From contig JBCCPL010000009.1 of NCBI GenBank assembly GCA_039111155.1, forward strand, positions 1 through 64,000: a stretch of DNA of 64,000 bases, written 5' to 3'. Origin of the DNA: Pseudomonadota bacterium. GTDB taxonomy: Bacteria > Pseudomonadota > Gammaproteobacteria > Pseudomonadales > Halieaceae. Shown piece by piece: positions 7,371 to 64,000 of this stretch. Position 1 is the stretch's first letter. Each line of letters starts with the position of its first letter. The notes beneath the pieces are model-generated. The model saw nothing but the letters and a program-made list of their open reading frames with translations, made no database searches and was not told where the DNA came from. A program made the position numbers and the translations under genes.

Positions 7371-8609
7371 CTAGTTGCGCCGCAGCCGCACCTGTCCTCT
7401 GATCTCACCCCCAGGGTTCGCCTCGGTGTGAAGGTTGATGTAGATATTGCCGGCCGCCATCTCGTTTAATAGGTTCAAGAAGGGATCATCGCCCTCGGCA
7501 AGCGGACCAACGACAGCTGAGCCATCGATCACCGTATCGATTATCTCGCCGTTGATGGCATCAGTAAGGTTGGCAACCACCGGACCGTTTGTGCCTTCCT
7601 GCCCAAGATGAAGGTGAGCCATAACGACCGGTCCGGACAATCGGCCCTGCGCAATGAACACATCCAGCTCCTGAGCGTTATAGGACGTGAGAGTGGCAAG
7701 ACCACCACCACGGCTTTGTACCGGTACAGCGGTGACTTCCTGACCTGGTGTCAGACGCGATGAGAAGAGTGTCTCCCGAGCCAGGTCGACAAAGCGGAAC
7801 GAAAACTCGGCCGCTCGATATGTGGACGCCAGAAAGTCGGCCATTCCGAAAATAGGATGACTCAAAACGCCATCGGGGAAGGCAAGACCGCTTAAGAACC
7901 CTTCATGAAGGATGACTCCCATACTTTCCGTAACGCCGGTATCCGGTGCGGCTTGGCCAAGAAAAGCGGTGTTGCCCGCGATCTCATCGTTTACTTCGGT
8001 ACCTGCATCGAGCACTTCGCTTCCGGCCACCACAAATGAACTGCCAACAAAACGCCCCTCCTCGTTAAAGAGCTCGTGCGCCAGCGGGTTACCGTTTGCG
8101 ATAAAGGCATCATTACTTGGGATAACCATGGAAGCGTAGCTGAAATAACGGTCGATAGAGGGCTCCACCTGCAGCGTGATGGCCGAACGATCACCAGGAG
8201 CAAATGGTCCCGTCGGTCCAAACATCGTTGCCTGAGGCGCACCAGGTAAGAGATCCTCGAATGCCTCGGTTATAGGCCCGGTTGCGCCATCTTCTGCGAG
8301 CCTCTCTACCGCTGGAGACGGAACGAGGCCTGCGGCACCTAGAGGTACATTGCGATCATATGTATCGAAAGAGCCGTCGTGTATCCCGACCCAGAAAGGA
8401 GTTTGTGCAGCGCCGCGAGAAGGTGCGCTGTTTGTCACGTTAATGATGATCGACGGAAGCGAAAGTTCGCCGTCATCATCATCGGTATCTTGCGCTCCTG
8501 CGGTGTGCGCCAGCATGCCCATCATGACAGCGGTCAGCGCGATCGATAGTGTGGTCTTCTTAGTTTTCATATTCCTTACCTGCCGGGCCGGCCTGCGTAG
8601 GCCGGTCAC
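7371..8609 (-). CDS. secreted spondin_N-domain + CHRD-domain protein
   Basis: Signal peptide (MKTKKTTLSIALTAVMMGMLAHTAGA) and acidic linker (DTDDDDGE). N-terminal half carries 'TPFWVGIHDGSFDTYDRN...LAEDG', characteristic of bacterial spondin_N proteins. C-terminal half carries 'LSGPVVMAHLHLGQEGTNGPVVANL', a CHRD-like motif. Confidence 0.55.
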   Translation of the reverse strand: MTGLRRPARQVRNMKTKKTTLSIALTAVMMGMLAHTAGAQDTDDDDGELSLPSIIINVTNSAPSRGAAQTPFWVGIHDGSFDTYDRNVPLGAAGLVPSPAVERLAEDGATGPITEAFEDLLPGAPQATMFGPTGPFAPGDRSAITLQVEPSIDRYFSYASMVIPSNDAFIANGNPLAHELFNEEGRFVGSSFVVAGSEVLDAGTEVNDEIAGNTAFLGQAAPDTGVTESMGVILHEGFLSGLAFPDGVLSHPIFGMADFLASTYRAAEFSFRFVDLARETLFSSRLTPGQEVTAVPVQSRGGGLATLTSYNAQELDVFIAQGRLSGPVVMAHLHLGQEGTNGPVVANLTDAINGEIIDTVIDGSAVVGPLAEGDDPFLNLLNEMAAGNIYINLHTEANPGGEIRGQVRLRRN

Positions 8610-8972: not shown

Positions 8973-9491
8973 ATGACCGCACTGACACCCTCCTCTTCAC
9001 AACCCACTGCTGTTCAGCAGGCACTGGGTCTGCTCACCGCTGTTCTGGTTTGTTTCGCAGTGTCTGCAGTCGGCGCAGCCGCATCTTTTCAGGCGCGCGC
9101 GTTCTACGGCGACCTGGCGCAGCCCGACTGGGCACCGCCGGGCTGGCTGTTTGGCCCCGTCTGGACGGTGCTGTTTCTGCTCATGGCCGTGTCGGTTTGG
9201 TTAGTTTGGCGTGCAGGAGGCTTTCGGGAACGTCCTTGGGTCGCCTGGGTATTCATCGCCCAGCTCGCGTGTAATGCGCTATGGAGCTGGCTGTTCTTCG
9301 CATGGCAGCTGGGGTTACCTGCACTGCTTGATATCGTCGCGCTTTGGTCGCTGATCGCCTTATCGATCGTCGGATTCTGGAGTATCACCCGCCTGGCCGG
9401 TGCCCTGTTAATGCCCTATTTATTGTGGGTCAGCTTTGCCATGGCACTCAATTATTTTCTGCTTGAGCTCAACCCTGCGGTTCTTGGCTAG
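8973..9491 (+). CDS. tspO: TspO/MBR family tryptophan-rich sensory protein
   Basis: Five-TM, Trp-rich protein with 'WAPPGWLFGPVWTVLFLLMAVSVWLVW', typical of TspO/MBR. Confidence 0.8.
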   Translation: MTALTPSSSQPTAVQQALGLLTAVLVCFAVSAVGAAASFQARAFYGDLAQPDWAPPGWLFGPVWTVLFLLMAVSVWLVWRAGGFRERPWVAWVFIAQLACNALWSWLFFAWQLGLPALLDIVALWSLIALSIVGFWSITRLAGALLMPYLLWVSFAMALNYFLLELNPAVLG

Positions 9492-10102
9492 TCACTCCAG
9501 GATTTGATGACCTCCCCCGCGCGCTCCTTCGCCGCTAATCGTCGACAAAGACCCGAATTCCAGCGCGACCATTGGTCGACCGCCGCAACTAGGGCTTCGG
9601 AAATTCCGCCCTCCCCTTTGCGGCTTACGGCCACAACGTTTTGCGGTGTCGCGTCACTCCGTCCATAACTCGACACAAGCACGCTGGTAAAGGGCTTTAG
9701 CAGGGATCGAAACCCCTCGGGAGTGAATCGCCAATAGTCGTTCGGATACCCATGGATGGGAAACTCAAACACAGAGCTCATCACGAGCACACCACCAGGC
9801 TTTAAGACGCGGTACATCTCTTCGACCGCTGTCCACGGTCTTTCGACATGCTCAAGTGTGTCCAGGCAAACAGCGAAGCCGACAGAATCATCAGGCAAGT
9901 CAAGGCCATGCAGATCCAAGACCTGATCTACACCAGGGCCCTCTCGCATGTCTGCGCCGATGAATGTGTGATCGGTAAACAGAGGACGTAGATCTTCGAG
10001 AGTCGAGCCGGATACCTGAAGCGCGCCAAATTCGTAGACCGGTCCGGCCCACACAAGATGCTCGATACAAAGCTTCAGAAAATCGCGATTGGTCTTCTGC
10101 AT
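9488..10102 (-). CDS. class I SAM-dependent methyltransferase (type 11-like)
   Basis: 'VLDLHGLDLPDDSVGFAVCLDTLEHV' and 'LKPGGVLVMS' motifs of Methyltransf_11. Convergent with tspO; 4-nt overlap. Confidence 0.7.
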   Translation of the reverse strand: MQKTNRDFLKLCIEHLVWAGPVYEFGALQVSGSTLEDLRPLFTDHTFIGADMREGPGVDQVLDLHGLDLPDDSVGFAVCLDTLEHVERPWTAVEEMYRVLKPGGVLVMSSVFEFPIHGYPNDYWRFTPEGFRSLLKPFTSVLVSSYGRSDATPQNVVAVSRKGEGGISEALVAAVDQWSRWNSGLCRRLAAKERAGEVIKSWSD

Positions 10103-10796: not shown

Positions 10797-12548
10797 GTGG
10801 ATCAGACTATCGATACGGCAAACGAACCAAAAAATGGCGTGCAAGCCACACCGCCTGCGCGTGATAAAGCGAAGGCGCGTGCGCTCGCCGCAGCTGCGAA
10901 GAAGACACTCATCAAGCCGGACACGGTCAAGGCCTTCAAGAGCCTGCATACCTGGACCGGGGTAGGCGCGGGCATGGCTCTGTTTATCGCCTTCTTTGCC
11001 GGTGCATTGACGGTTTTTCACCACGAGCTGGGGGACTGGGATAGCTACGCCCAGCAAGTACCAAGGGAACAGACCATCGCGGAAGCTCAGCTGCTGGTGG
11101 AGCAAGCCATACTCGACGAGCCGGGTGCGGCAGAAAGCCTGAGGCTATATTTACCAGGCCATCACAGCAACGAGAACGAGGTCTACTGGTACGAGAGACT
11201 CGAGAACGATACGTTTGAGACCCATCGATGGCGCATGGATGATGCGGGAGGCATCGACACATCGCTAGAGACCGCACACGTGGCGGATTTCGTTTATCGA
11301 CTGCACTACACCGGTGGCCTGATGCCGGCACGTCTGGGCCTGTATGCCCTCGGTATCATTTGTGTGCTTTATGGCCTGGCACTGTTCTCCGGCGTGCTGC
11401 TTTTTATCCCCGGCTTTTTAAAAGACCTCTTGGTTGTGCGTAAAGGAGGCAAGAACCCGAAGCGCTTCTGGCTGGACGCACACAATGTGATTGGTGTGGT
11501 TTCGCTGCCCTTTCACATTCTGTTCGCCTGGAGCAGTGCAATTCTGGCGATTGGCGTGTTCTTTCTCGCGCCGTTTCAATACCTGGTGTTTGATGACGAT
11601 CTCACCAAACTCGTCGGTCCGGAACTTGGTTTTGTGGACGCCGTGGAACCAAAAAACGAGCCTGCCGAGATGCTGAGTATTGCTGAGGTCTTAGAGATCG
11701 TAGAGCGCGAACTACCTGGAATGGAACCCGAACAGGTGAGATTCGCCCACTATGGCGATGCAGGTAGCAGCGTCTCAGTGTACGGGGACGCTCCAACGGG
11801 CACCTTGGTAACGGGAGCCGGCGTCACTTTGAATGCGGTTTCCGGTGAAGTCATCTCCTACTTCGATCCTGCCCAGGCGACGCCCGGGGGCACCTTCTAC
11901 CGAGGCTTAATGACTCTGCACTTCGTGGATTTCGGCGGCTACTTCGTTAAGTGGACGTTCTTTACGCTGTCGATGCTCGGGGCGTTCCTGTTCTATTCGG
12001 GCAACCTGCTGTTCGTAGAGAGCCGCCGCAAGCGCCGGGAGCAGCAACAGCCCGGCAAGGCAGTCTTGCTGGCCAAACTTAACAGTGGCGTGTGTATCGG
12101 TGCGATCGCAGGTATCGCCATGGCGATGTTGGCGAGTCGCTTTTTCAGCAACCTGGAGGGCCGGGCGGATCTTACCGAGTTCGCTTACTACACTGTGTTT
12201 CTGCTTGGACTTGGCTGGTCAATCTATCGCCCGGTCGCAAAGGGAACGCGTGATCTACTGAACCTATCAGCCTTACTGTGCTGCGCGATCCCGGTAGTCG
12301 ACGCGACGCTGATCGGTATGCCGCTATGGAAGAGCTTTGTCGAAGGCCATTGGTCACTGTTCGTGATCGACGTCATGGCACTCACGATGGGCGTCTTATT
12401 CTTGCGAATCGCCCGCGCAGTATCACACCGGTCGAAGAACGGCCCTGAGAACAGTGTTTGGTACAACCGGCCAACCGATCGAGAAGCACAGGAGTTAGTA
12501 CCCAACGAAGTTTCTCCGCCGGTCGCAGTGGCGGTAGCAAAAAACTAA
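10797..12548 (+). CDS. PepSY-associated TM-helix (PepSY_TM) membrane protein
   Basis: Long first-TM region containing 'FKSLHTWTGVGAGMALFIAFFAGALTVFHHEL' (PiuB/PepSY_TM signature), followed by periplasmic domains and further TM helices; 583 aa. Confidence 0.7.
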   Translation: MDQTIDTANEPKNGVQATPPARDKAKARALAAAAKKTLIKPDTVKAFKSLHTWTGVGAGMALFIAFFAGALTVFHHELGDWDSYAQQVPREQTIAEAQLLVEQAILDEPGAAESLRLYLPGHHSNENEVYWYERLENDTFETHRWRMDDAGGIDTSLETAHVADFVYRLHYTGGLMPARLGLYALGIICVLYGLALFSGVLLFIPGFLKDLLVVRKGGKNPKRFWLDAHNVIGVVSLPFHILFAWSSAILAIGVFFLAPFQYLVFDDDLTKLVGPELGFVDAVEPKNEPAEMLSIAEVLEIVERELPGMEPEQVRFAHYGDAGSSVSVYGDAPTGTLVTGAGVTLNAVSGEVISYFDPAQATPGGTFYRGLMTLHFVDFGGYFVKWTFFTLSMLGAFLFYSGNLLFVESRRKRREQQQPGKAVLLAKLNSGVCIGAIAGIAMAMLASRFFSNLEGRADLTEFAYYTVFLLGLGWSIYRPVAKGTRDLLNLSALLCCAIPVVDATLIGMPLWKSFVEGHWSLFVIDVMALTMGVLFLRIARAVSHRSKNGPENSVWYNRPTDREAQELVPNEVSPPVAVAVAKN

Positions 12549-12781: not shown

Positions 12782-13351
12782 TCATGAGTTTGACAAGCAC
12801 GCGCTTGTCAGTCGCGCATACAGGCCCGCAACTAACACTCCACTCATTACACCCGCAAGATGCATTTCAAATGAAATGCGTGAATCCGAGGGCACAAGAC
12901 CCCATACCATGCCGCCGTAGAAGAAAACTACGACGACGGCCATGAGCACGCTTTTCAATTTCCGGTCTAACCAGGCAATGCTGATCAGCATCCCCCACAG
13001 TCCATAAACCCAACCGCTTGCACCCAAGTGCGCCGCTTCGCGACCAAAAAGCCAGACCAAGCCACCGCTAATGGCGATGATGCAGGCGCTGCCGAACAGG
13101 AATAGAAGTCTCGATCGGAGAGCTACCATGGATCCAAATACGAGCAGACCCGTGCAGTTGCTCATCAAGTGTGATGAGTTCGCATGTACGAATGGCGCGC
13201 TGAAGATCGTAAACCAACGGCTGTCTGAACGCGGGAGGACACCGTAGAGTTCTGGGCGCAGACCTACCCCGATTGCTGCGGCATGAGCGAGGACCTCTAG
13301 CAATACAACGGCGGTAACCAAGGTTAGTGCCTTCGCCAATCGCCGCAGCAT
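12782..13351 (-). CDS. rhomboid-family intramembrane serine protease (last gene of the giant-ATPase operon)
   Basis: Textbook rhomboid motifs: 'FVHANSSHLMSN' (TM2 H/N), 'GASGWVYGL' (GxSG catalytic Ser, TM4), 'HLAGVMSGVLVAGLY' (catalytic His, TM6). Start at 13351 abuts the stop of the upstream giant gene (13352). Confidence 0.85.
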   Translation of the reverse strand: MLRRLAKALTLVTAVVLLEVLAHAAAIGVGLRPELYGVLPRSDSRWFTIFSAPFVHANSSHLMSNCTGLLVFGSMVALRSRLLFLFGSACIIAISGGLVWLFGREAAHLGASGWVYGLWGMLISIAWLDRKLKSVLMAVVVVFFYGGMVWGLVPSDSRISFEMHLAGVMSGVLVAGLYARLTSACLSNS

Positions 13352-16300
13352 CTAACTACCTGGTGGAGACTCGCCCGCGTCGTGCAGCTCGTCTTGTAGG
13401 CTACGGAGTTGTTGCGAAACCTCGACCATTTTTTCGTGAGTGCGTAGATCGATATCGAGTTTTTTATCCATGTTGCGAATCAGGGGCATAATGCTGTGCT
13501 CTAGAGAATCGGCAAGCGCATTTAAGACCTTATCAATGCCCGGTACGGGTCTGTTCTCGACGGTCACAGCGGGTGCATTCTCCTGTATCGCGGTCACCAA
13601 ACGATCTGCCAATTCCTCAACGCCGGCACGACCCTGCTCATTTTGCTCCGTGGATGACGCAGAAGCCTTTGTTGCCAGTGCGTCTACTCCATTCACCAGG
13701 TCAACGAGCTGCGCCACAACTTTATTGCCCACATCGGCATCGTCGCCGCCGATGGCTTTGTTACGCAAAAAATCCGCCTTAATCTGTTCCCAGCGCTGCC
13801 TCTCCTCCGCGCTCATCACACCGCGCAATTCTTGCAGCTTTAGAAGATTCGCCTCCGCTCCAGTGGTCAAAAGCTGTGCTTCGCCGAGATAGTGATCTTC
13901 GATCATTTGCTGAAGCTCTTCGTCGTTCATCACGGAGGAAATCTTCTCCGTCATTTTGTTCATGTTGCGGTAGCTGCCCTGTAGTTTGAACGGTGGCTCA
14001 ACTCTATACGCGTCCTCTTGGCCAGCTGATTCGATATATTGCTGATTGATCTTCAAGACGATGTCCTGAACTACGAACATCTTGCGCAGCACAGCGGTGA
14101 TTTCATTGATTTCGGCGGCGCTGTAGGCATGGCTGAGATCAGAGGTTGCGACCTCTGCGCCTTTAGCGATAGCAACGAGTTTGTAGACGTCGCCCATCTC
14201 CCGCGTCGCGAGCGGTGCCAGAGCAGTATTGGAAGTCAGGGCGTTTTCGACGTAGCTGAGCGCAAACTGCTCTTCCATTCCACCAAGAATGTCGCCCAAA
14301 TTGTAGATATCTGCGCGGTTGGCCAGCATATCGGGAACTTTGAACGTCTCACCGCTTTCTGTGTAGGGATTACCTGCCATGACTACACAGAACTTTTTTC
14401 CACGCATGTCGTAGGTCTTGCTGACACCCTTCCAAACGCCTTCGATGCGTCGCGTGCCATCACAGAGGGATATGAACTTCTGTAGAAACTCCGGATGGGT
14501 ATGCTGAATATCGTCTAGGTACAGCATTACGTTGGAGCCCATTTCAAGTGCAAGATTGAGTTTTTCAAGCTCACTGGAAGCAGTCGAATTTGGCGCTTGT
14601 AGCGGATCGAGGGACTTAACGTCGTGGCCAAGTGCGGGACAATTGATCTTCATGAAAACAAGACCCAGACGACTGGCGACGTATTCCATCAAGGTTGTCT
14701 TACCGTAACCCGGTGGTGAAATCATCATCAGCAGGCCCATGAGGTCCGTTCTCTTGCTCTGGCCGAAAGTACCCATCTGCTTCGCTAGGTTGTCCCCGAT
14801 GAGTGGTAGATATGACTCATTAATCAAGCGATTGCGAACGAACGAACTCAGTGGTCGGGCCCGGAACTCCTCAAGGCGTAGATTTTTACGAGCGAAAGAA
14901 ACTGCCGACCGACGCTGTTCAAGATAGCTTTGATATGCGGGCACAACCTCGGTTCTATGCTGTTCCAAACGCAATAGGAACGTATCAATGGCAAACTCGA
15001 GAGACTGATCTTTAATCGTGGGATGTTCCCCAAGGAGTCCGCCGACTCGCAGCTCAGTTTCAACCGAGGTAGCCCGCCGGGTCAGGGTCTTTTCCGCATT
15101 GATGTGTGCTACCGCCTCAGGAATATAATGCTCGTAGTGAGACAGTCCTTTGCTCTTGACCATGGCAGTAAGCCACGCCGTGCTCAATTGCCATCGCTGG
15201 GCAGGCCAGCCTTTCATTTGCCGCAGCGCGTGCTTTAGCTGTCGCCAGGTCCGCTCGCCAACGGCCGTTGTCAGTTCTGTGACCAACGATTGCGCATACT
15301 TACTGCCAATAAACTCAAGATGCTCACGACTCAACTCTTCGACCAAGTATTGAGCAGCCCGCTGCACCTGCAGCGTCGAGACGGGAATCGGATGCAGATC
15401 GAGAAAGTCCTGAAGCGCTCGCTGCACTTCTTGGGACAACAGGCTTAGGGCGTCGCTACGTGCAAATGTTGACTTCATCTGTGCGCCGGATTGCGCACGC
15501 TCACGCCAGGTCTCGTGCGAAAGGCGCTGCACCGGGGTGCCGGGATCGATTTCGACAATCGTCTCCGTGGCATGCAGGTTCGCCCAAAACACCTGCGCAA
15601 GACCGCGGCTGGCCGGGTCAAAGGTCAGCAGGTCGCAGCGCTGCATGGCCGAGGTGACTTCGTCAAGAATCAGGAGCGCATCGTGATCATGAACGCCCTT
15701 TACGTATCCTTCTTTGTAGTGCTTGGTGACAAATCTCTGAATTAGAGCCTCAAGTTTCTTGCGGTCGACTGGCGCATTGTCTGCGGTCGCGTTCGCAAAG
15801 TCTTGTCCCCGTTGCAGCTCCACAAGGACCGTGTACGCAAGGTATTCGCTCCGGTATACCGTCGGACCCTCGGACTCAAGGGTCATTTCCCAGTAGTCGC
15901 TAAGCGCATCTAGACTCGGGTCGTCGATTGGCTCAAAGAAATCAGTTCCTGTGAGATGAAGGTCGAGACGACCCTCCCGCGGGATGATACTGAGATCAAG
16001 CTCCTGTGTATTGACGGAGAAACGATGCCGGGGCCCAAGCCGAATGACGGCTCCATCGTCCTCGAAAATATCGCTCTTATCACGAAGCGAACGGTGTGCC
16101 AGCTCGCTGGCGGCTTTGAATCGAGCCTCTATGTCATCGGCTTTTACCGCACTCCCTAAATCGCGGAGCTGCTCGCAGAAATCTCCAACTTTAAGCACTA
16201 GGGGGTCAGATGCAAAATAGGTGTTCAATGCATCCTGATCGGCCAGAGTAAGAGAGCGCTTTTCGATATTTACCAGTGTCCGCTCTGCTGCATCGGCAAT

Positions 16301-18619
16301 CGACTGTGATTTACGTTGACGCTCATCGAGCAATTGCTGCTTACGCGTCTCGAAGGACTCGTAGACTTCCTCCCGCTTTGCTACAAGTTCACCGATGAAC
16401 TGCTCATGCTCTCCAAACTGGCCCTCCAGATCCTCTAACTGAACCAAAAGGCGCGACAGAAGCTCATCACAGCGCTTCGGCGTGTCCGATTTACTCAAAT
16501 TGTTAGCCACGCTCTGTGAAAACAGCTTGAACTGGGCACTGAACTGAGCGGTCGCCTCCTCAGACCCCAACGATTTGGCTTTGAGCCTCGCTGTTGCGCG
16601 AATACGATTAAGCAGCGCGTAGACTTGAGAGATCGAATCGATGATCTCCGTATGCAGAGTTGCATCGTCTACACTCAGGGTACTGACAAGCTCCGAAAGC
16701 AAGTCAAGATCGGAGGATGTAGCTTCTAGGCTTTCGAGTACCGGCTTAAGCTCCGACATCGTTTTTGCGGTCTCGAGCGCAGCTTCAAAACTCTGAGCCT
16801 TGCTTTCGTAAGGAGTCAGTGCGTCTGCAGAGGACAGAAAGGCTGTGGTTTTCGCACTCAGTTCCTGCTCGACAGCCTCTAGATCGACACTCATCAGTTT
16901 TACCTGATTAATGTCTATGTAACGAAGCTCTTGGATTGTCACCAGATGACCGCGCTGGCGGCGCAGCTTACCCAGAGTAGTTACGTACTGCTCTGCGGAG
17001 TCCCAACTCTCTGGCCGCACCGACTGCAGGAGAGCCTTCTGTTCTGTCCGCGCATCGCGCAATGCGATTTCTGACTGCTCACGAATTGCGTGGACTTTTT
17101 CAAATTCATCGATGACAAGATCGGCGGTTTCAGCGATTTGCCGAGCTAGTAGGCCCACCGCAGCTACTTCATCGTCCGCCAACCAAAAATGATCATCAAA
17201 CAACTTGCTAGCAATACGCCTTAGTTCTTCATAATGCCTTGTTGATACGGTTTCGTTGTCAATATGGCGACACATGGCGTAGAGATCCGATACGCCGCGG
17301 ACCAGTTCAGCATTACCGATCCGAGAGTAAAAGGTCTGTCCGATTGACTTGTATGCCGCATGTTCCTCACTGGAAAACGGTGTATGCCAGAGCTGCATTG
17401 GATGCACGCGGGTAGCTTCTTCTTCAGCTGAAAAGATGACCAGGCCGCCATCAGCGGCAAGCGCATAGCCGTGGCAGACGATTGGATTGGCGAGCTCTTT
17501 CCGAATCAGATTGTAGGCCAACAATGCCGACGTGCCCGACTCCGGTGCGTAAAAAACATACAACACGTCCTCACCATTGGGTGAACGAACGCGTTGACGA
17601 AACTTTAAGTTGGGTACGAAATCGCTGAGCGACTTGTATTCACCGGTCTCTAGAAAATAACCGCCCGGAAAAATGACACCGTGATCATCGGGAAGCTGCA
17701 CACACGATGCGCCGATGGCATCAACCCGCGTGACATTCTCAGTCAGTGAATTGAAAATGAGAAAACGCCACTGTTGTTCTCTGTAAGGGCGAACCTTTAG
17801 CAAGATCAGATTGCCAACCAGCGCGTAAGCAAGCTGTACGTCGTCAAGGGACTGGGTAGCATCCTCCACCGGCTCGCTGTAGATGCCGAGACCGTCTTCT
17901 GTATTGTTTTCAACTTTGACCGTTAATGTGCCGTCCAAGGTTTCAACGAATACCCGGTCGCGAACATTGATGTGCGCGTGGCGGCCGTGGACAAAGTCAT
18001 CACGACTAGTTTCAATCCAATCGAAGTCAAAGGCGGGTGGCGGCCTGATATCACGCTCACCGCGGTTATCGATGTATTCAACACGAGAACCGTCGGGGGA
18101 AAGGGTCCAGCGAAACACACGTATATCGCTAAGGCGCTCACCGATCTGGAAGCCAGCAAGCAGCTTACCGTCGCGAACCGTCAGTTCGATCAACTGCGTG
18201 TGCTTGTAATAACGATATAGTTCGTCGAAGTCGTTAACGAACCTTTGCTCCGCTAAAAAACTCCCAACCAGTGGTACGGCCGTCATATCCACACTGTCAG
18301 TGTCAGTGTTGACGTCGAACAGTGCGAAGACATCGGCGACCCGGGTTTCTCTCTTGAGCCCGATGAAAACGTTATAGCCAAACAGTAGGTGCCCGCCTAC
18401 CTGAACGATGTCGCGCGCTACACAGTTGTTTTCGGTACGCACGCGGGTACGACCGACAACCCGCATGTCCGATGCTCCGAATTCATCTACTCGGGCCTGA
18501 TTCAGGGAGGCTATTTGTGCCTGAAGGTCCTGCGACTGCATATCCAGTCGCTTGCGGATGACTTCATAGGCGCCCCCCTGCGCGACGGCATCATCGACTT
18601 GTGACTCTTCCTGGCTCAC
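13352..18619 (-). CDS. giant (1755 aa) multidomain P-loop/AAA+-like ATPase with long coiled-coil regions; function unknown
   Basis: Uninterrupted 5.27-kb ORF. Walker A 'MISPPGYGKTTL' at about residue 1300 (nt ~14693-14740) and Walker B-like 'VMLYLDDIQH' about 65 aa later. N-terminal ~450 aa beta-rich. Residues ~500-1000 are strongly helical, E/L/A/Q/S-rich coiled-coil-like; C-terminal ~300 aa helical. Codon usage matches its neighbours. Confidence 0.75.
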   Translation of the reverse strand: MSQEESQVDDAVAQGGAYEVIRKRLDMQSQDLQAQIASLNQARVDEFGASDMRVVGRTRVRTENNCVARDIVQVGGHLLFGYNVFIGLKRETRVADVFALFDVNTDTDSVDMTAVPLVGSFLAEQRFVNDFDELYRYYKHTQLIELTVRDGKLLAGFQIGERLSDIRVFRWTLSPDGSRVEYIDNRGERDIRPPPAFDFDWIETSRDDFVHGRHAHINVRDRVFVETLDGTLTVKVENNTEDGLGIYSEPVEDATQSLDDVQLAYALVGNLILLKVRPYREQQWRFLIFNSLTENVTRVDAIGASCVQLPDDHGVIFPGGYFLETGEYKSLSDFVPNLKFRQRVRSPNGEDVLYVFYAPESGTSALLAYNLIRKELANPIVCHGYALAADGGLVIFSAEEEATRVHPMQLWHTPFSSEEHAAYKSIGQTFYSRIGNAELVRGVSDLYAMCRHIDNETVSTRHYEELRRIASKLFDDHFWLADDEVAAVGLLARQIAETADLVIDEFEKVHAIREQSEIALRDARTEQKALLQSVRPESWDSAEQYVTTLGKLRRQRGHLVTIQELRYIDINQVKLMSVDLEAVEQELSAKTTAFLSSADALTPYESKAQSFEAALETAKTMSELKPVLESLEATSSDLDLLSELVSTLSVDDATLHTEIIDSISQVYALLNRIRATARLKAKSLGSEEATAQFSAQFKLFSQSVANNLSKSDTPKRCDELLSRLLVQLEDLEGQFGEHEQFIGELVAKREEVYESFETRKQQLLDERQRKSQSIADAAERTLVNIEKRSLTLADQDALNTYFASDPLVLKVGDFCEQLRDLGSAVKADDIEARFKAASELAHRSLRDKSDIFEDDGAVIRLGPRHRFSVNTQELDLSIIPREGRLDLHLTGTDFFEPIDDPSLDALSDYWEMTLESEGPTVYRSEYLAYTVLVELQRGQDFANATADNAPVDRKKLEALIQRFVTKHYKEGYVKGVHDHDALLILDEVTSAMQRCDLLTFDPASRGLAQVFWANLHATETIVEIDPGTPVQRLSHETWRERAQSGAQMKSTFARSDALSLLSQEVQRALQDFLDLHPIPVSTLQVQRAAQYLVEELSREHLEFIGSKYAQSLVTELTTAVGERTWRQLKHALRQMKGWPAQRWQLSTAWLTAMVKSKGLSHYEHYIPEAVAHINAEKTLTRRATSVETELRVGGLLGEHPTIKDQSLEFAIDTFLLRLEQHRTEVVPAYQSYLEQRRSAVSFARKNLRLEEFRARPLSSFVRNRLINESYLPLIGDNLAKQMGTFGQSKRTDLMGLLMMISPPGYGKTTLMEYVASRLGLVFMKINCPALGHDVKSLDPLQAPNSTASSELEKLNLALEMGSNVMLYLDDIQHTHPEFLQKFISLCDGTRRIEGVWKGVSKTYDMRGKKFCVVMAGNPYTESGETFKVPDMLANRADIYNLGDILGGMEEQFALSYVENALTSNTALAPLATREMGDVYKLVAIAKGAEVATSDLSHAYSAAEINEITAVLRKMFVVQDIVLKINQQYIESAGQEDAYRVEPPFKLQGSYRNMNKMTEKISSVMNDEELQQMIEDHYLGEAQLLTTGAEANLLKLQELRGVMSAEERQRWEQIKADFLRNKAIGGDDADVGNKVVAQLVDLVNGVDALATKASASSTEQNEQGRAGVEELADRLVTAIQENAPAVTVENRPVPGIDKVLNALADSLEHSIMPLIRNMDKKLDIDLRTHEKMVEVSQQLRSLQDELHDAGESPPGS

Positions 18620-18647: not shown

Positions 18648-20534
18648 TCAAATCGAATCGCGCTCTGTCGCTACACTCGCCTCGGGGCGAGCTTCCAAAA
18701 CCCGGTCAATAAGGGCAGAGATCGTGCCACTCTTCTCCGCAAGCCCATCCACCGCTTTCCCGATGGATAGTGACTTGGCGAAGTTGTCGAAGAAGTGCTC
18801 TTCACCACCCACAATATCGATCTTTGCTTTTTCAAGCGCAGTTGCCAGAACCTCCGCATTCTCGCGAGCTATTTCTTTACCGGCTTCGATAGACGCCAAC
18901 GCCTCCCTAAGGGCTGTCTCCAGACCCATGCGGTACTCCTCGTGAGCCCGGGCTTCCACGCTCATGCTGTTCATTGCGTCGAACTTATCGGTTAGGCCGT
19001 CGGCCTCGGCCTTGAACTGCTCTCGGGTAACCTCGGCCTGGGCCTTGCCGGTTCCGAGAAGAGCATCCGCCTCGGCATCGCCCTTCGCCTTGATCACAGT
19101 TGCCTCGGCAAGGCCTTCTTTTTCTAGCGCATCGGCTTTTGCGGCCTGCACTCGTGCCTCGGCGAGCCCTGTTGCGGCTTCCTCCGCCTGTGTACCCTCG
19201 GCGAGCTGCTTCTTTGCATCGGCCTCTTTTGCGGCTGCATCCAACTCAGCCTGAGCGATCGTTGTGATTTCCACTGCCTTGTGGCGAGCGGCGGCCTCCT
19301 CGGCTTCTGCAGCTTTCACTTGCTTGGTTTTTTCCTCCTCTGCCTGCGCTTCCGCCGCAAGAACCTGGGTCTGCTTAAGGCGATCCGCCTCGGAAACTTC
19401 ACGAACCTCCTTAATGTTCTCTTCCTCGATTGCTACGGTCTTGTCGACGGCGACCCTTTCACGAATGACGTTGGCGATTTCCTTCTTTTCAACCTCAACG
19501 GCTTTCTCCGCCTCTATCTTTTGCAGCTCGACCTCTCGCTCCCGGGATACAACTTCCAGATCGCGTGCTCGCGTCACCTTCTCCTGCTCGATAGCCACTG
19601 CTCGCTGACGATTCTGCTCCGCCACCTCGATCTCCCGCTGCTGATTCTCGGTCTGTACGGCAAGTTCCTGCGCTACCTGAATCGCAGTAGTTTCAGCCCG
19701 TTGCCGCTCTTCTTCTTGTACTTTTTTAGTCTCCGCTTCTTCACGGGCACGAATGGTCGCTATTTCACGCTCTTGCTTGGCTTCCGCGTCCGCTTGCTGG
19801 CGCTCCAGTTCGAGCATGGCCTCGACGGTCTCCACGTTCTTCTTCTTTATCGCCAACTCTTCGTCACGTTCGAGATCATTTGTGCGGACGTTCTGTGCTG
19901 CCGTAAGTTCTGTGATTTTCTTGATGCCTTCTGCATCTAGAATATTGGTGGGATCGAGAGAGCCTTTAGGAGTCTGCTCAAGATAATCGATGGCAACATC
20001 CTCGAGTACGTAGCCGTTCAGATCGTCTCCGATCACCTGGATAATCTTTTCTCGGAAGTCCTGACGATTTTCGAACAACTGCACAAAGTCGATCTGCTTG
20101 CCTACAGTTTTCAGCGCTTCAGAGAACTTGGCATTGAACAGCTCGTTCACAGCGACCCTGTCTGATGCACGGCTCGCTCCGATCGATTTTGCGACCTTTA
20201 AAACATCGTCCGCAGTCTCGTTCACCCGTAAGTAGAACGCGACAACGATGTCAGCGCGCATATTGTCTTTACAGATCAGTCCATCCGTTCCCCGCCGATC
20301 TATCTCCAGAGTGATCAGTGAGATACGCATTAGCTCTTTCTTGTAAATGATTGGGTAAACAAGTGCGCCCGTGAAATGAACCTTCGGACGCGAACTCATA
20401 TCGTTCACAATCAGCGCAGTCCCCTGCTCGACCTTCACATAGAAAGCCTTAAAGATGGCTGCAAATCCCATCAGGATGACAAAGAAAATGCCTACGCCAG
20501 TCACAATAGGCATTAACACAGAAAGGTCAGCCAT
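18648..20534 (-). CDS. flotillin-family SPFH/band-7 protein (YqiK-like)
   Basis: N-terminal TM helix, SPFH core ('VKVEQGTALIVNDMSS...', 'RADIVVAFYLRV'), then ~250 aa of E/A/K/Q-rich flotillin-type coiled coil; 628 aa. Confidence 0.9.
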   Translation of the reverse strand: MADLSVLMPIVTGVGIFFVILMGFAAIFKAFYVKVEQGTALIVNDMSSRPKVHFTGALVYPIIYKKELMRISLITLEIDRRGTDGLICKDNMRADIVVAFYLRVNETADDVLKVAKSIGASRASDRVAVNELFNAKFSEALKTVGKQIDFVQLFENRQDFREKIIQVIGDDLNGYVLEDVAIDYLEQTPKGSLDPTNILDAEGIKKITELTAAQNVRTNDLERDEELAIKKKNVETVEAMLELERQQADAEAKQEREIATIRAREEAETKKVQEEERQRAETTAIQVAQELAVQTENQQREIEVAEQNRQRAVAIEQEKVTRARDLEVVSREREVELQKIEAEKAVEVEKKEIANVIRERVAVDKTVAIEEENIKEVREVSEADRLKQTQVLAAEAQAEEEKTKQVKAAEAEEAAARHKAVEITTIAQAELDAAAKEADAKKQLAEGTQAEEAATGLAEARVQAAKADALEKEGLAEATVIKAKGDAEADALLGTGKAQAEVTREQFKAEADGLTDKFDAMNSMSVEARAHEEYRMGLETALREALASIEAGKEIARENAEVLATALEKAKIDIVGGEEHFFDNFAKSLSIGKAVDGLAEKSGTISALIDRVLEARPEASVATERDSI

Positions 20535-20592: not shown

Positions 20593-21282
20593 TTAGCCAC
20601 CACGAAACTCATCTTCCGAGATAACCCGATACACGCCTTCATCTTTGCGATGTTCAAGCAGCACTACCCGATCACCGCGGGTATAGGTCGCGTCACCGGT
20701 AGCACGAACCTTCAGGATCAGGCCTGCGCCGCCGTCTTCGAGTAGAGCTTCGCCAAATTCTGCATTGACAACAGACGTGCGTACGACCGCCGACTGTCCG
20801 AGTACCTTCTTGACGGTTTGTTGAAGCGCTTTTTTAAACAGCGGACGCATTGGTTTGATCACTTGCGCAGTGATCATCGTTGCCACGTAAAGCGCCAAGC
20901 CAAGGATTGGAATACCCGCACCGAAACGCAGAAAACCTTCCGGCAGGGGCCGAAGAAAAAAGTGGCTGAGATAATAGGAGATCAACCACCCAAACAGCGC
21001 GATACAGGACACGATGATCGTTACGGGGACACCGGTCAGCCCGAAGCGCAAGAGCAGGCCAGCCAAAACATCCGGATTGGATAGCCCCTGATCTGCAGCT
21101 CCAAGCACGCTATCTGTCTCGGGCAGGTCAAAGTCGAGAAACTCGATATCTACGAGCCCAAGAACTGCGATCGCCCAGTAGAGCAGTACCACACCGAGAA
21201 GGACGGTAAAGACAATCGTCGGAAAAGAAGCAATCGTCTGGTAGAACGGGTTCATACCTTCAGTCAGAAAAATCGCGAACAT
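20593..21282 (-). CDS. YqiJ/NfeD-like inner-membrane protein (flotillin operon partner)
   Basis: Polytopic membrane N-half and soluble beta-rich C-half ('VVRTSVVNAEFGEALLEDGGAGLILKVRATGDATYTRGDRVVLLE'), resembling the NfeD/YqiJ OB-fold tail. Positioned immediately upstream of the flotillin gene, as in yqiJK-type pairs. Confidence 0.6.
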   Translation of the reverse strand: MFAIFLTEGMNPFYQTIASFPTIVFTVLLGVVLLYWAIAVLGLVDIEFLDFDLPETDSVLGAADQGLSNPDVLAGLLLRFGLTGVPVTIIVSCIALFGWLISYYLSHFFLRPLPEGFLRFGAGIPILGLALYVATMITAQVIKPMRPLFKKALQQTVKKVLGQSAVVRTSVVNAEFGEALLEDGGAGLILKVRATGDATYTRGDRVVLLEHRKDEGVYRVISEDEFRGG

Positions 21283-21355: not shown

Positions 21356-22042
21356 CTACTGTTTTGCCCTGAGACGGTCCAGCACCTCATCGGCGCTCGC
21401 GCCTGACGGCGCAATTCCCGCCTGCTCCAATTTGGTCTGTAGAGTTTCACTGGAGCTCTCATCGGCCAGATCGCGGGCCGCGTTCATCCTCGCCGCATTC
21501 AGCGCCTGCTTCTCCTTGATGCGCTCCAACGAATCCATCGCGGTACGCATCTTTGAGTTAGAACCACTATGACGCTCGGCAACAGCGGCTTGTGCGCGCT
21601 GTACGTTTTCTGTGGCTTTGACTGTATCCACCTGCTGCTTGATGCGTTTCAAATTCTGTTCGGTTTGATTGATCGCCGCGCGTAAATCATCGGCCTGCTT
21701 TTTGTAACCCGCAACGGACTCCCGCTCGTGGGTAAGCTGGTTTTCCATATCTGCGATTTTCTCAGCGACATCCCGCGCTAAAGCAGTATCACCCTTGTCG
21801 AGAGCCTGAATGGCATAGCCTTCGTGCTCCTCGATCTTGGCTACCAAACTCTCCGATTTCTCTTCCGCAAGCTTCTGGTGAGCAAGTATTTCTGCCAGTC
21901 CGTCCCGCGATAGCTTTAATTCTTCTGCTGCGTCTCGAACCTCCTGGTCGAGAATTCTCAGGGCCTGAGAATCCACGATCGCCTCTCCCGCTTCATTCAC
22001 ACCACCACGAAGCGCCGTCATCATTTTTGCCCAGATATTCAT
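21356..22042 (-). CDS. PspA/IM30-family protein (bacterial ESCRT-III homologue; YjfJ-like)
   Basis: 228-aa all-helical protein. N-terminus 'MNIWAKMMTALRGGVNEAGEAIVDSQALRILDQEVRDAAEELKLSRDGLAEILAHQKLAEEK' matches the PspA/IM30 helix-0/helix-1 layout. No pspBC or pspF nearby. Confidence 0.8.
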   Translation of the reverse strand: MNIWAKMMTALRGGVNEAGEAIVDSQALRILDQEVRDAAEELKLSRDGLAEILAHQKLAEEKSESLVAKIEEHEGYAIQALDKGDTALARDVAEKIADMENQLTHERESVAGYKKQADDLRAAINQTEQNLKRIKQQVDTVKATENVQRAQAAVAERHSGSNSKMRTAMDSLERIKEKQALNAARMNAARDLADESSSETLQTKLEQAGIAPSGASADEVLDRLRAKQ

Positions 22043-22060: not shown

Positions 22061-22690
22061 TTAGACGGCCTCTGCCGTAACGTCGAGAAACTCCATATAG
22101 GCTTGTGTCGCCTGCAATACATTGCTCGCTAGCACTTCAATCTCAAGCACGACATTCTGCAGCTTGGATGCGGCACTCAATGCACCGAACATTTGGTAGA
22201 CCTCATCATCATCGCTGATTCTGTCGAGACTGATCGTTGAAAGGGGAAAGTACTTGTGTGTTCGAAGCACAGCATCGTTGAACGCTGCGACATCTACCAC
22301 GTCACTGGCTGGCCAGAGCACCGACTCAGCAATGATCTGCTCCCCCGAGACGGTGAGAAAAATCGGTAGATCCCCGTATTCGGTCATGACGATATGCAGT
22401 GATGCATCCACACCATCAATGAGTTCGATTCTCGCGCGCCCGGTAGTTGTCATCTCGTGATCGCTGAGCGCCTCATATAGGCTTTTTGTACTCCAAAAAT
22501 CCACCTTCTCACTCATGCTTACACCTCCTTCCGGTTTGAGCTGATCACGGTCCTCACGCAAAAGCTTCTCTATCCGCAACAATTCCCTCGAGGTCTCGGG
22601 GCGAATCCAGACTTCTTTTTTCACTAAGCCTTTTTGGCGTAACCGCTTGCGGTATTCGCGTTGATAATGCGCTGAAGATTTGATCACCAT
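22061..22690 (-). CDS. fusion of an N-terminal ribbon-helix-helix-like DNA-binding module with a DUF2170 (YjfI-like) domain
   Basis: From Met at 22690: 'MVIKSSAHYQREYRKRLRQKGLVKKEVWIRPETSRELLRIEKLLRE' (basic beta-strand then helix, RHH/CopG-like), followed by ~150 aa resembling the YjfI/DUF2170 partner of YjfJ-type PspA. The longest ORF extends to 22801, but that extension overlaps the palindromic promoter region. Confidence 0.5.
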   Translation of the reverse strand: MVIKSSAHYQREYRKRLRQKGLVKKEVWIRPETSRELLRIEKLLREDRDQLKPEGGVSMSEKVDFWSTKSLYEALSDHEMTTTGRARIELIDGVDASLHIVMTEYGDLPIFLTVSGEQIIAESVLWPASDVVDVAAFNDAVLRTHKYFPLSTISLDRISDDDEVYQMFGALSAASKLQNVVLEIEVLASNVLQATQAYMEFLDVTAEAV

Positions 22691-22707
22691 GGATGCAGCG
22701 TAGCATG

Positions 22708-22740
22708 TTACATGTAAGATTAAAATGATATTACATGTAA
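22708..22740 (-). promoter_or_regulatory. pair of perfect TTACATGTAA palindromes (putative operator) overlapping the operon promoter
   Basis: TTACATGTAA at 22708-22717 and 22731-22740 (centres 23 bp apart, AT-rich spacer), 18-50 nt upstream of the ATG at 22690. Further ACATGT-core half-sites at 23015-23023 and 23050-23055. Confidence 0.45.
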
Positions 22741-23426
22741 TAGTTTGAAAGGATAATTGAACAAGCCTGAGTGGCGTTACACCCGACGCGCATGGACGCA
22801 TGGATTTGTGGCTTCCATAAGCGCCTGATTGCCGGAGTTCAGGTCATTCCTTGAGCCTTACTCTGAGTCTTCGGAGCGTTAAGCCGGGAATTGCCTTTGA
22901 TCCCAGATCTTAAGAAACCCACATCGATGGATTGGCATTGAAGACCCGCGCCCTGCGCTCGGTATGGTATCGGTTCGCACAGAAAATCACCGAGATACAA
23001 AGATTTCTCTCTATTACATGTTCCCGGCGAGACGCGGGTAGACGCCTGCACATGTAGCTGCTTCTACTGAGTTCGCTAAGCGAACCTTGATAAACAACGC
23101 TTCACCGACTCAGTGGTAATCGGGCAAGCGAGTGAGTAGACAGTTAACGCTTCGACGAAAACCGCTGGTTTGCGGTTCGTCGAGAGGCGAATCGGACGTA
23201 GCGATAGCCGCAGGTCAAAGAAAGTCTGATCATGATCACCCGAAGCATTCCAAACAGGGCCGCATCGAGCGGCATAGAGACAGGCTGCGAGGGACTAAAT
23301 CCCGCCCTATGAAGACCACAGATTTTTGACGGTTGAGTGAAAAAGCACTCTTTAGAGTTATAGAAAGCAATTCATCAGGGCAGCGATTGCAAACTGAAAC
23401 AATTAAGTCGAGACGAGATCGGCGCA

Positions 23427-29761: not shown

Positions 29762-31458
29762 TGCGCAGTATCAACCGCAGTGACTACGCCAGCATGTATG
29801 GGCCAACCGTGGGTGATCAGGTTCGTCTCGCCGACACAGACCTGTTCATTGAAGTAGAGTCTGATCGCACGCTCTACGGTGAAGAGGTCAAGTTTGGGGG
29901 CGGTAAAGTCATTCGCGACGGCATGGGGCAGGCCCAGGTAAGTTGTGCCGACAGCCCCGATACGGTGATCACCAACGCTCTGATTCTTGACTACTGGGGG
30001 ATCGTTAAGGCCGACGTTGCGTTAAATGCGGGGCGAATTCAGGCTATTGGCAAGGCAGGCAACCCCGACATTCAACCGGGAGTCACCATAACGATTGGCC
30101 CGGGAACTGAGATCATTGCCGGTGAGGGTCAGATTCTGACGGCCGGGGGAATCGACGCCCACATCCACTTTATTTGCCCTCAGCAGATCGAAGAAGCTCT
30201 GATGAGCGGAGTAACCACCATGATTGGGGGCGGTACGGGACCGGCCACCGGTACCAACGCCACCACCTGCACACCCGGACCCTGGCACATCGGCAAGATG
30301 CTGCAATCGGCCGAAGCATTCCCGATGAATCTTGGATTCTTAGGCAAGGGGAATGCGAGTTTGCCGATCGCGCTGCGTGAGCAGTTAAAGGCCGGTGCCC
30401 TGGGTCTGAAGCTGCATGAAGACTGGGGCACAACACCTGCGGCGATTGATAACTGCCTGTCGGTCGCCGAAGAGTTTGACGTGCAGGTTGCCATTCACAC
30501 CGACACGCTCAATGAATCGGGATTCGTCGAGGACACAATCGCTGCTTTTAAAGGGCGCACTATTCACACGTATCACACTGAGGGTGCCGGCGGTGGCCAC
30601 GCGCCGGACATCATAAAGGCCTGCGAGCTTCCAAACGTATTGCCCTCTTCTACCAACCCCACGCGCCCCTACACCATCAATACGGTAGACGAACACCTGG
30701 ACATGTTAATGGTGTGCCATCACCTTGATCCGTCGATCCCCGAGGACGTGGCTTTTGCAGACTCGCGTATTCGTAAGGAGACCATAGCGGCGGAAGACAT
30801 TCTTCACGATCTGGGCGCGTTCTCGATTATCTCCTCCGACTCTCAGGCCATGGGGCGTGTCGGCGAGGTAATCTGTCGAACCTGGCAAACGGCCAGCAAG
30901 ATGAAAACGCAGCGCGGCAAGCTCGCAGACGGCGCCGCCGATAATTTCCGCGCCAAACGCTACATCGCCAAGTACACGATCAATCCGGCGCGGGCGCACG
31001 GTGTTGATCACGAGGTTGGATCTATCGAGGAGGGCAAGCTTGCGGATCTGTGCTTATGGAAGCCGGCGTTCTTCGGCGTAAAGCCCTCGCTGATTATCAA
31101 AGGTGGCGCCATCGCAGCGGCGCCTATGGGAGATGCCAACGCGTCGATACCCACGCCCCAGCCGGTGCACTACCGGCCTATGTTCGGCGCCTTTGGAGGG
31201 GCGCTTCGAACGACCAGTGTGAGCTTTGTCAGTGAAGCGTCCCTGGAGCTGGGGTTGGCAGAGAAGCTGGGACTGCAACGCCCCTTGCGAGCGGTGCGTG
31301 GTTGTCGCACTGTCACTAAGGCCGACATGGTACTGAACGACTACCAACCCAAAATGGAAGTCGATCCTCAGACCTACGAGGTGCGGGCCGATGGCGAGCT
31401 TCTAACCTGTGAGCCTGCGACTGTGCTGCCGATGGCGCAGCGGTACTTTTTATTCTAA
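29761..31458 (+). CDS. ureC: urease alpha subunit (nickel metalloenzyme)
   Basis: 565 aa; '[13 protein letters not shown]', 'MVCHHLD', 'GGGHAPDII' active-site motifs. Confidence 0.95.
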
Positions 31459-63767: not shown

Positions 63768-64000
63768 CGGGTGTGCTATCGCCTTTTATCAGGCAATCTG
63801 TTGACCTTCTCATGCTACCCGTCACTTTTGCCAAAATTCAGCGCGATACACTCCACCGCAGTCCGTACCTTTGGCTGGGGTTCGTTTTTGCGAGTTGTAT
63901 TCGACAGCTGTGTAAGATAGTTGCGGTGGGACTGATTGGCCAATGCTTCTACCGCTCTTTCCTTCAAAAAAACGTCAGATTCTAAGTGAACAACTGATGG

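Follow-up and report, generated by a model that had tools for sequence, protein, structure and literature searches.

A giant DUF3686-family AAA+ ATPase encoded with a long flotillin, and its possible role in remodelling bacterial membrane scaffolds

What does a giant ATPase of 1755 amino acids (aa) do when its gene stands among genes for membrane scaffold proteins? The question is raised by an open reading frame (ORF) on the minus strand of contig JBCCPL010000009.1 (assembly GCA_039111155.1, Pseudomonadota), of which the stretch from position 1 to position 64,000 was analysed and is called the window here. A preliminary description of this DNA held that the protein could not be assigned to a named family and was the most likely novel component. 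Neither statement survived: by its Pfam matches the protein is a member of the DUF3686/DUF7902 "DNA repair ATPase" family, which has more than 5700 homologues and whose operon association has been published (PMC11237479), and the window supplies one more member. What the analysis adds is explicit evidence for an intact ATPase site, a "DNA repair" label found to lack support, flotillin in place of PspA as the constant partner, and a rhomboid protease that often belongs to the operon. The reading we favour, to which we give a probability of roughly 45%, is that the giant protein is an ATP-driven remodeller of a flotillin/YqiJ scaffold, and possibly of PspA, under membrane stress.

Family, ATPase site and domain anatomy

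The ORF runs for 1755 codons without an internal stop, bearing out the uninterrupted 5.27 kb reported earlier; by our own arithmetic, such a run would arise by chance with a probability of ~e^-73 (54% G+C, at which ~4% of random codons are stops). Its GTG start codon is credible, because a GGAG lies 9 nucleotides (nt) upstream and because conservation among homologues begins at about residue 8. The product contains no transmembrane segment (maximum KD19 of 1.45) and is best explained as a soluble, cytoplasmic protein of ~195 kDa. Pfam PF12458 (DUF3686) matches residues 31-478 with an E-value of 2e-193 (643.4 bits against a cut-off of 25; profile positions 1-448 of 448), and PF25472 (DUF7902) matches residues 599-682 with an E-value of 3e-26 (91.8 bits against a cut-off of 26). 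A word-indexed search returned 5767 homologues under the name "DNA repair ATPase"; the closest was 100% identical, from a Pseudomonadota metagenome-assembled genome (MAG), and the next best 68% identical. Most of 72 full-length cluster representatives (1500-2036 aa) gave single end-to-end, collinear BLAST alignments. Named members come from Gamma- and Betaproteobacteria, Myxococcota, Actinomycetota, Bacteroidota, Verrucomicrobiota, Planctomycetota, Sumerlaeia and Deinococcus; the family spans at least seven phyla and includes proteins of P. aeruginosa, Proteus, Vibrio and Streptomyces.

The C-terminal third holds a genuine AAA+ module. In AlphaFold2 models built with 84-sequence alignments for residues 1-900 (mean predicted local distance difference test score, pLDDT, 82) and 861-1755 (mean pLDDT 78), an alpha-beta-alpha ATPase core with a helical lid spans residues ~1290-1600, and Pfam AAA, AAA_5 and AAA_22 match residues 1295-1420 weakly, yet over threshold. 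The Walker A motif ISPPGYGKTTL occupies residues 1299-1309 and the Walker B region VMLYLDDIQH residues 1364-1373; they lie where the preliminary description had placed them (nt 14501-14725), and K1307 and D1369 are 62 residues apart. The P-loop and the acidic pair D1369-D1370 sit on adjacent strands of the core, as expected of the AAA+ superfamily. Across 64 full-length homologues that are 30-52% identical to the window protein, S1301-P-P-G-Y-G-K1307-T, D1369-D1370-I-Q-H, G1416-N1417-P, R1435 and Q-G-S-Y-R1551 are all invariant. Sensor and arginine-finger motifs had been flagged for checking; N1417 (sensor-1), R1435 (candidate arginine finger) and R1551 (candidate sensor-2) are assigned these roles by position, in a model whose pLDDT falls below 50 over residues 1428-1446. 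Mean majority identity is 0.70-0.76 in the ATPase core, the best conserved segment, against 0.35-0.55 elsewhere. Since these motifs do not vary even among diverse homologues, and since conservation within the protein peaks in the core, the ATPase site is, as judged from its residues, intact and not degenerate. A degenerate P-loop domain and membership in a well-characterised family had both been raised earlier as outcomes that would overturn the idea of a novel ATPase; the first is not what we find, and the family is catalogued but not well characterised.

The place of this module among AAA+ clades is a matter of leaning. Foldseek matched the C-terminal model only to AAA+ proteins (Skd3/ClpB, ClpC, ClpA, RuvB and NorQ, E ~1e-4), and the nearest structural neighbours were the MoxR ATPases CbbQ and NorQ, narrowly ahead of Hsp100 proteins and RuvB. 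The protein also matches the profile of the MoxR/AAA_5 clade. A beta-hairpin at residues 1392-1403, between alpha3 and beta4 of the model, corresponds to the pre-sensor-1 hairpin. With the structural matches, this hairpin puts the modelled core in the hairpin-bearing AAA+ superclade, where it leans to MoxR, if only narrowly, as the preliminary description had suggested. The helix-2 insert hairpin of MoxR proteins was not seen, the beta2-alpha2 segment (1327-1344) being only a loop in the AlphaFold2 model, and no gene for a VWA-domain partner was present in the window operon or in the related loci examined. When the protein and a profile of 64 family sequences were run against PDB sequences, only a 35-residue P-loop stretch aligned, with RuvB, NVL and Rix7 (E ~1e-3), and thus the clade cannot be placed from that search. 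The ATPase half was searched exhaustively with phmmer against 1.84 billion cluster representatives, and only 1012 matches came up at E<=1e-3; therefore, the ATPase module stands apart in sequence space from ordinary AAA+ proteins.

Outside the core, the models bore out the three-part anatomy proposed earlier, a beta-rich N-terminal domain, long helices and the ATPase. Residues 53-412 form ~28 beta-strands, sufficient for the seven blades of a propeller, and Foldseek matched the N-terminal part to the seven-blade propeller of prolyl oligopeptidase and to the propellers of IFT-A, Elp1 and Nup155 (E 5e-7 to 1e-4). The TM-scores of the best matches to residues 1-900 are very low (0.07-0.13), and therefore only the propeller is really matched. 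The stalk that follows contains helices at residues 483-533, 653-710 and 739-791 (DSSP on the AlphaFold2 model), the longest reaching 58 residues, and it gave a weak match to the syntaxin Habc profile (E 0.02). The ~500-aa coiled-coil region of the preliminary description thus stands as to its long helices and not as to its length, which is ~415 aa, and the helices are coiled-coil-like only. That layout also did not separate out the small beta unit and the ~350-aa helical domain that precede the ATPase. This domain is all-helical and confidently modelled (pLDDT 90-96); Pfam, profile and structure searches found no sequence or fold match for it, and Pfam scans of sub-fragments at E<=5 gave nothing for residues 861-1260 or for the C-terminal tail. 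Within it lies a family-invariant motif, G975-V-H977-D-x-D980-A, which could be a metal- or ligand-binding or a regulatory site. After residue ~1650, the protein ends in a poorly conserved helical tail.

Genes that accompany the ATPase

On the minus strand of the window, the gene order is YjfI/DUF2170, PspA, a YqiJ-like protein with three transmembrane segments, a flotillin of 628 aa, the giant ATPase and a rhomboid protease (Table 1). Packing on this one strand is tight, with a gap of 28 nt between flotillin and the giant gene and a TAGATG junction between the giant gene and rhomboid. We compared 80 related gammaproteobacterial loci, in which most shortfalls reflect loci too short to show the gene in question. 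Flotillin lies directly upstream of the giant gene in 69 of the 80 and a YqiJ-like homologue upstream of flotillin in 68; PspA is found in 60 and YjfI in 58, and about nine gammaproteobacterial loci have the triad of YqiJ-like protein, long flotillin and giant ATPase without PspA or YjfI.

Six distant lineages were also examined for gene context. Five of them have the triad: Streptomyces scabiei, a MAG of Myxococcota, an unplaced metagenome contig, Aureliella (Planctomycetota) and a genome of Verrucomicrobiota. In these five, the YqiJ-like homologue again stands upstream of flotillin. Their flotillins are 43-53% identical to that of the window, while the ATPases are ~30-38% identical between lineages. 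No PspA gene was called in the flanks examined of the Streptomyces, Myxococcota, metagenome and Planctomycetota loci. Because the triad is kept in distant lineages, most of them without PspA in the flanks examined, flotillin and the YqiJ-like protein are the constant partners of the giant ATPase, and PspA-YjfI, rhomboid, PLD and zinc-ribbon genes are accessory and lineage-specific.

Three of the loci have further features. In the Verrucomicrobiota locus (L086, 151-2750), a PspA_IM30 gene forms a pair with the gene of a separate classical AAA protein of 559 aa, and the pair lies divergently beside the triad; thus PspA and the flotillin module can each have an ATPase of their own. On pQBR103, a megaplasmid of P. 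fluorescens SBW25 (L087, 86860-106620), the triad comes right after genes for DUF2491, DUF350, DUF1190 and glutathionylspermidine-synthase proteins, which are of the E. coli yjfKLMC type, so that two classes of PspA-linked operon are joined on the plasmid. In Streptomyces scabiei (L081, 13367-18323), a STAS-domain protein and a second flotillin, of canonical type (Band_7 and Flot, 477 aa), are encoded within 4 kb downstream of the giant gene.

The flotillin of the window is easily overlooked. It has a transmembrane segment at residues 1-36 followed by lysines, and by the positive-inside rule its bulk would face the cytoplasm. Scanned at full length, it matched no Pfam family even at E<=5; Band_7 was seen only when residues 1-230 were scanned alone. 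Apparently the tail, rich in E, A and K, trips the bias filter of HMMER, and automated annotation can miss this SPFH protein. Flotillin homologues in other phyla gave the same blank in full-length Pfam scans. The YqiJ-like protein with three transmembrane segments likewise had no Pfam match. YjfI scored 302 bits against the NCBIfam equivalog "biofilm formation regulator BacA" (cut-off 300), in an alignment that begins at residue 38; its true start is therefore probably M38 (nt 22690), which would leave an upstream gap of more than 700 nt.

Table 1. Features of the giant ATPase and its operon in the window (positions in nt; residues are those of the protein concerned)
Feature	Position	Strand	Evidence
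Giant soluble AAA+ ATPase, 1755 aa (predicted)	13352..18619	-	ORF and Pfam DUF3686/DUF7902 family; database name "DNA repair ATPase"
N-terminal helix (residues 17-47) and beta-propeller (~53-412)	17384..18568	-	AlphaFold2 model, pLDDT mostly 85-92; Foldseek
Long-helix (coiled-coil-like) stalk, residues ~430-845, including DUF7902 (599-682)	16085..17332	-	AlphaFold2/DSSP, Pfam
Small beta unit (~866-897) and helical domain (~900-1250)	14870..16024	-	AlphaFold2 model
AAA+ module, residues ~1261-1600	13820..14839	-	AlphaFold2 fold, Pfam, conserved motifs
Long flotillin, 628 aa: N-terminal transmembrane segment, SPFH/Band_7, E/A/K-rich helical tail	18648..20534	-	Band_7 E 1.7e-7, residues 1-230
Protein with three transmembrane segments and a soluble C-terminal domain, likened to YqiJ/NfeD for its position and architecture	20593..21282	-	Three hydrophobic segments
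PspA/IM30 (ESCRT-III superfamily), YjfJ/BacB type	21356..22042	-	Pfam PspA_IM30 E 1e-45
DUF2170/YjfI (CesT/Tir-like), BacA type	22061..22801	-	Pfam DUF2170 E 5e-50; NCBIfam
Small rhomboid intramembrane serine protease	12782..13351	-	Pfam Rhomboid E 4e-19; ATG abuts the TAG of the giant gene

A rhomboid gene was found within 800 nt downstream of the giant gene in 38 of the 69 loci with enough downstream DNA. The rhomboid of the window has a GxSG motif with Ser112, together with His164 and an HxxxN motif, and all of these are conserved in 39 homologues. In many relatives, rhomboid is followed by a PLD-family (HKD) gene (23 of the 80 loci), and a ~180-aa protein with two TFIIB-type zinc ribbons is encoded in ~37 of the 80. 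Loci with such an extension of the operon include L016 (11861-13683), L008, L010, L012, L018, L022, L029 and others; neither the PLD nor the double zinc-ribbon gene is present in the window.

Much of this neighbourhood had been seen before. Ravi et al. (mSystems, 2024) described the same operon from comparative genomics, with its association of CesT/Tir (YjfI)-PspA, a transmembrane band-7 flotillin and YqiJ (PMC11237479); they named the equivalent of the gene with three transmembrane segments YqiJ/YuaF-type, noted wider, abbreviated operons without PspA, and proposed a chaperone-like membrane role for the gene set. The loci compared here confirm the published link of the giant protein to PspA, flotillin and YqiJ; the word "rhomboid" is absent from that paper. 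The bac cluster of P. aeruginosa (PA3732-PA3729) agrees with the window operon in gene order and protein sizes (PMC2587700), and the order YjfI (BacA)-PspA-like (BacB)-transmembrane protein (BacC)-SPFH protein of ~70 kDa (BacD)-ATPase recurs in the Pseudomonas/Ectopseudomonas loci L070, L075, L076, L078 and L080. The giant protein is the probable orthologue of PA3728, which adjoins the bac cluster, as judged from gene order and the Pseudomonas loci rather than from a direct alignment. Osmotic shock induces PA3731, whose loss lowers biofilm formation and virulence (PMC2587700); mutations in PA3728 (described as an "ATPase") recur among cystic-fibrosis isolates (PMC8190622).

A sigma-54 site like that reported for PA3732 (TGGCAC-N5-TTGCW) was no commoner in the window than in shuffled sequence, and none lay upstream of the operon. 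A weak terminator-like hairpin lies 3' of rhomboid at 12564-12547 (minus strand). The neighbours beyond the operon look unrelated to it: a PepSY_TM gene at 10797-12548 (plus strand), a methyltransferase gene at 9488-10102 (minus strand) and a CHRD-domain gene at 7371-8609 (minus strand). The Rfam family 5_ureB_sRNA was matched at 29910-30196 (minus strand) with 101 bits (gathering score 40), implying a urease cluster nearby. No tRNA genes were found in the 64-kb window.

Proposed function and competing explanations

We propose that the giant protein is the dedicated energy-using partner of a scaffold made of the long SPFH-type flotillin and the YqiJ/NfeD-like membrane protein, a module that in Gammaproteobacteria sits within a PspA-type membrane-stress operon. 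The analysis shows the domain anatomy of the protein, its invariant ATPase motifs, its lack of transmembrane segments and the synteny across phyla; we infer its oligomeric state, its substrate, the domain that binds the substrate and the direction of its action (building or dismantling). The C-terminal AAA+ modules would oligomerise, probably as a hexamer, and the seven-blade propeller, carried on its long helical stalk, would dock on the flotillin assembly at its cytoplasmic side and perhaps on PspA polymers as well. The enzyme would then use ATP binding and hydrolysis to assemble, disassemble or turn over these scaffolds at the stressed membrane, while the accessory gene products, rhomboid here and the PLD and double zinc-ribbon proteins in relatives, may work on the enclosed membrane proteins and lipids.

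Several observations weigh against this proposal. Walker B carries an invariant DD in place of the usual DE, and hydrolysis may be slow or switch-like. The beta2-alpha2 loop has the consensus GPALGHxVTSLDP, with no aromatic pore-loop residue, which makes polypeptide threading by the enzyme doubtful; taken together, the two features point to a remodeller or switch rather than to a processive unfoldase. Sequence, profile and structure searches place the AAA+ module among the clades only by a narrow leaning. The giant gene of Aureibacter (Bacteroidota) is solitary: there is no flotillin gene within 7 kb of it. A P. aeruginosa mutant in the flotillin paFlo3 (PA14_16180) has only mild phenotypes (PMC13086221). 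Finally, in the searched literature we found no experimental study of the DUF3686 ATPase itself, nor experimental or interaction evidence for any member of the family.

Could the main substrate be PspA and not flotillin, the enzyme being a functional counterpart of Vps4 that recycles ESCRT-III-type polymers in bacteria? Such a role appears vacant, since, according to a 2025 review, bacteria appear to lack a Vps4-like ATPase (PMC7619361). PspA and YjfI share the operon in the window and in 58-60 of the 80 related loci, PA3728-PA3732 are co-induced on phage infection (PMC12041424), and the pQBR103 copy of the module is joined to genes of the yjfKLMC type. The distribution of PspA nevertheless speaks for flotillin: the Streptomyces, Myxococcota, metagenome and Planctomycetota loci keep the triad with no PspA called in the flanks examined, about nine gammaproteobacterial loci do so without PspA or YjfI, and in the Verrucomicrobiota locus PspA has a different AAA protein as its neighbour. 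A Vps4-like mode of action is further opposed by the lack of an MIT domain and of an aromatic pore loop, and by the partial match to PF00004 (profile positions 2-69 of 131). We therefore regard PspA as an unlikely main substrate.

A structural role is also conceivable, in which a lattice built of the propeller and the long helices would cover the flotillin domain, with the AAA+ module as a slow ATP switch, making the protein a nucleotide-gated coat or tether. The invariant DD of Walker B and the missing aromatic pore residue would suit this reading, as would the very large non-ATPase portion of ~1250 aa, and the best Foldseek matches to residues 1-900 are themselves coat and scaffold proteins (IFT-A, Elp1 and Nup155). 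These matches, however, come down to the propeller, and the helices are long bundles in which an alpha-solenoid is not demonstrated. Moreover, sensor-1 and both candidate arginines are invariant, which argues that hydrolysis itself, and not just nucleotide binding, is under selection. The odds that the protein is a coat of this kind seem low to us.

Much less probable is an anti-phage or abortive-infection defence set off by envelope damage. The phage induction of PA3728-PA3732 (PMC12041424) would agree with it, as would the copy on pQBR103 and the large size of the ATPase, which in relatives is accompanied by PLD nuclease-like and protease genes as accessories. However, no PADLOC model matches the ATPase, the flotillin, the YqiJ-like protein, YjfI or rhomboid (PspA gave weak coiled-coil matches only), the giant protein is absent from 50,697 phage records, and its stable synteny across families and phyla is unlike that of defence islands; the osmotic-shock induction is in keeping with a general response to membrane stress (PMC2587700). 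"Plasmid" records matching the giant protein number only 13 and are mostly chromids or mis-typed chromosomes.

That the protein is a DNA repair ATPase is very improbable. The idea is favoured only by inherited database names ("ATPase involved in DNA repair", "DNA repair ATPase"), behind which we found no evidence, and by the 35-residue P-loop similarity to RuvB. Against it, both Walker motifs lie in one AAA+ core, whereas in SMC, Rad50 and SbcC a coiled coil separates them. Pfam and NCBIfam detect no SMC_N, AAA_23, ABC or DNA-binding domain, conserved neighbourhoods consist of genes for proteins in or associated with the membrane, and a full-text search for DUF3686 gave no paper.

Relation to known systems

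The closest relatives are the DUF3686 proteins themselves, PA3728 included, with which the window protein is collinear over its full length at 30-68% identity and shares the domain order, the invariant motifs and the operon partners. Nothing essential sets the window copy apart; it comes from an uncultured Pseudomonadota MAG, its nearest relative is the protein at 68% identity, and its operon ends with rhomboid where many relatives add the PLD and double zinc-ribbon genes. The operon as a whole resembles the P. aeruginosa bac (YjfJ-type Psp) operon, whose gene order it matches and whose PA3729-PA3732 agree with it in size (PMC2587700), a likeness of order and size rather than of aligned PAO1 sequences. 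Flotillin/SPFH domes and PspA/ESCRT-III polymers are central to the organisation and repair of bacterial membranes, and the DUF3686 family is a widespread candidate for a Vps4-like role that has been hidden behind a misleading "DNA repair ATPase" label. It is a good target for experiments.

Among known AAA+ machines, the closest include the MoxR-type ATPases CbbQ, NorQ and RavA (Pfam AAA_5/AAA_3). The likeness to Vps4 and ESCRT-III is one of arrangement: an AAA+ protein is encoded with PspA, a member of the ESCRT-III superfamily, and is predicted to act on membrane-bound polymers. In contrast to Vps4, the giant protein does not have a classical-clade sequence, an MIT domain or an aromatic pore loop, and its linkage to PspA is facultative while that to flotillin is constant.

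SPFH assemblies are repeatedly paired with AAA+ machines, as in HflK/C with FtsH, prohibitin with the m-AAA protease, and SLP2-PARL-YME1L, the mitochondrial SPY complex. The window operon shares with them an SPFH scaffold genetically coupled to an AAA+ machine and, with SPY in particular, a rhomboid protease that is coupled as well. The giant protein differs in having neither a protease domain nor a transmembrane anchor and in carrying a propeller and a stalk instead, and its homology to these assemblies is that of the generic AAA+ fold only. We advance only tentatively, and as a rather doubtful extension of the scaffold-remodelling proposal, the thought that the family may be the missing ATP-driven recycler of bacterial membrane-repair scaffolds, a ring-shaped AAA+ motor whose arms end in propellers and which takes apart or reshapes the domes of flotillin and the polymers of PspA; it would then be an independently arisen functional analogue of Vps4 and, with its rhomboid, a bacterial counterpart of SPY.

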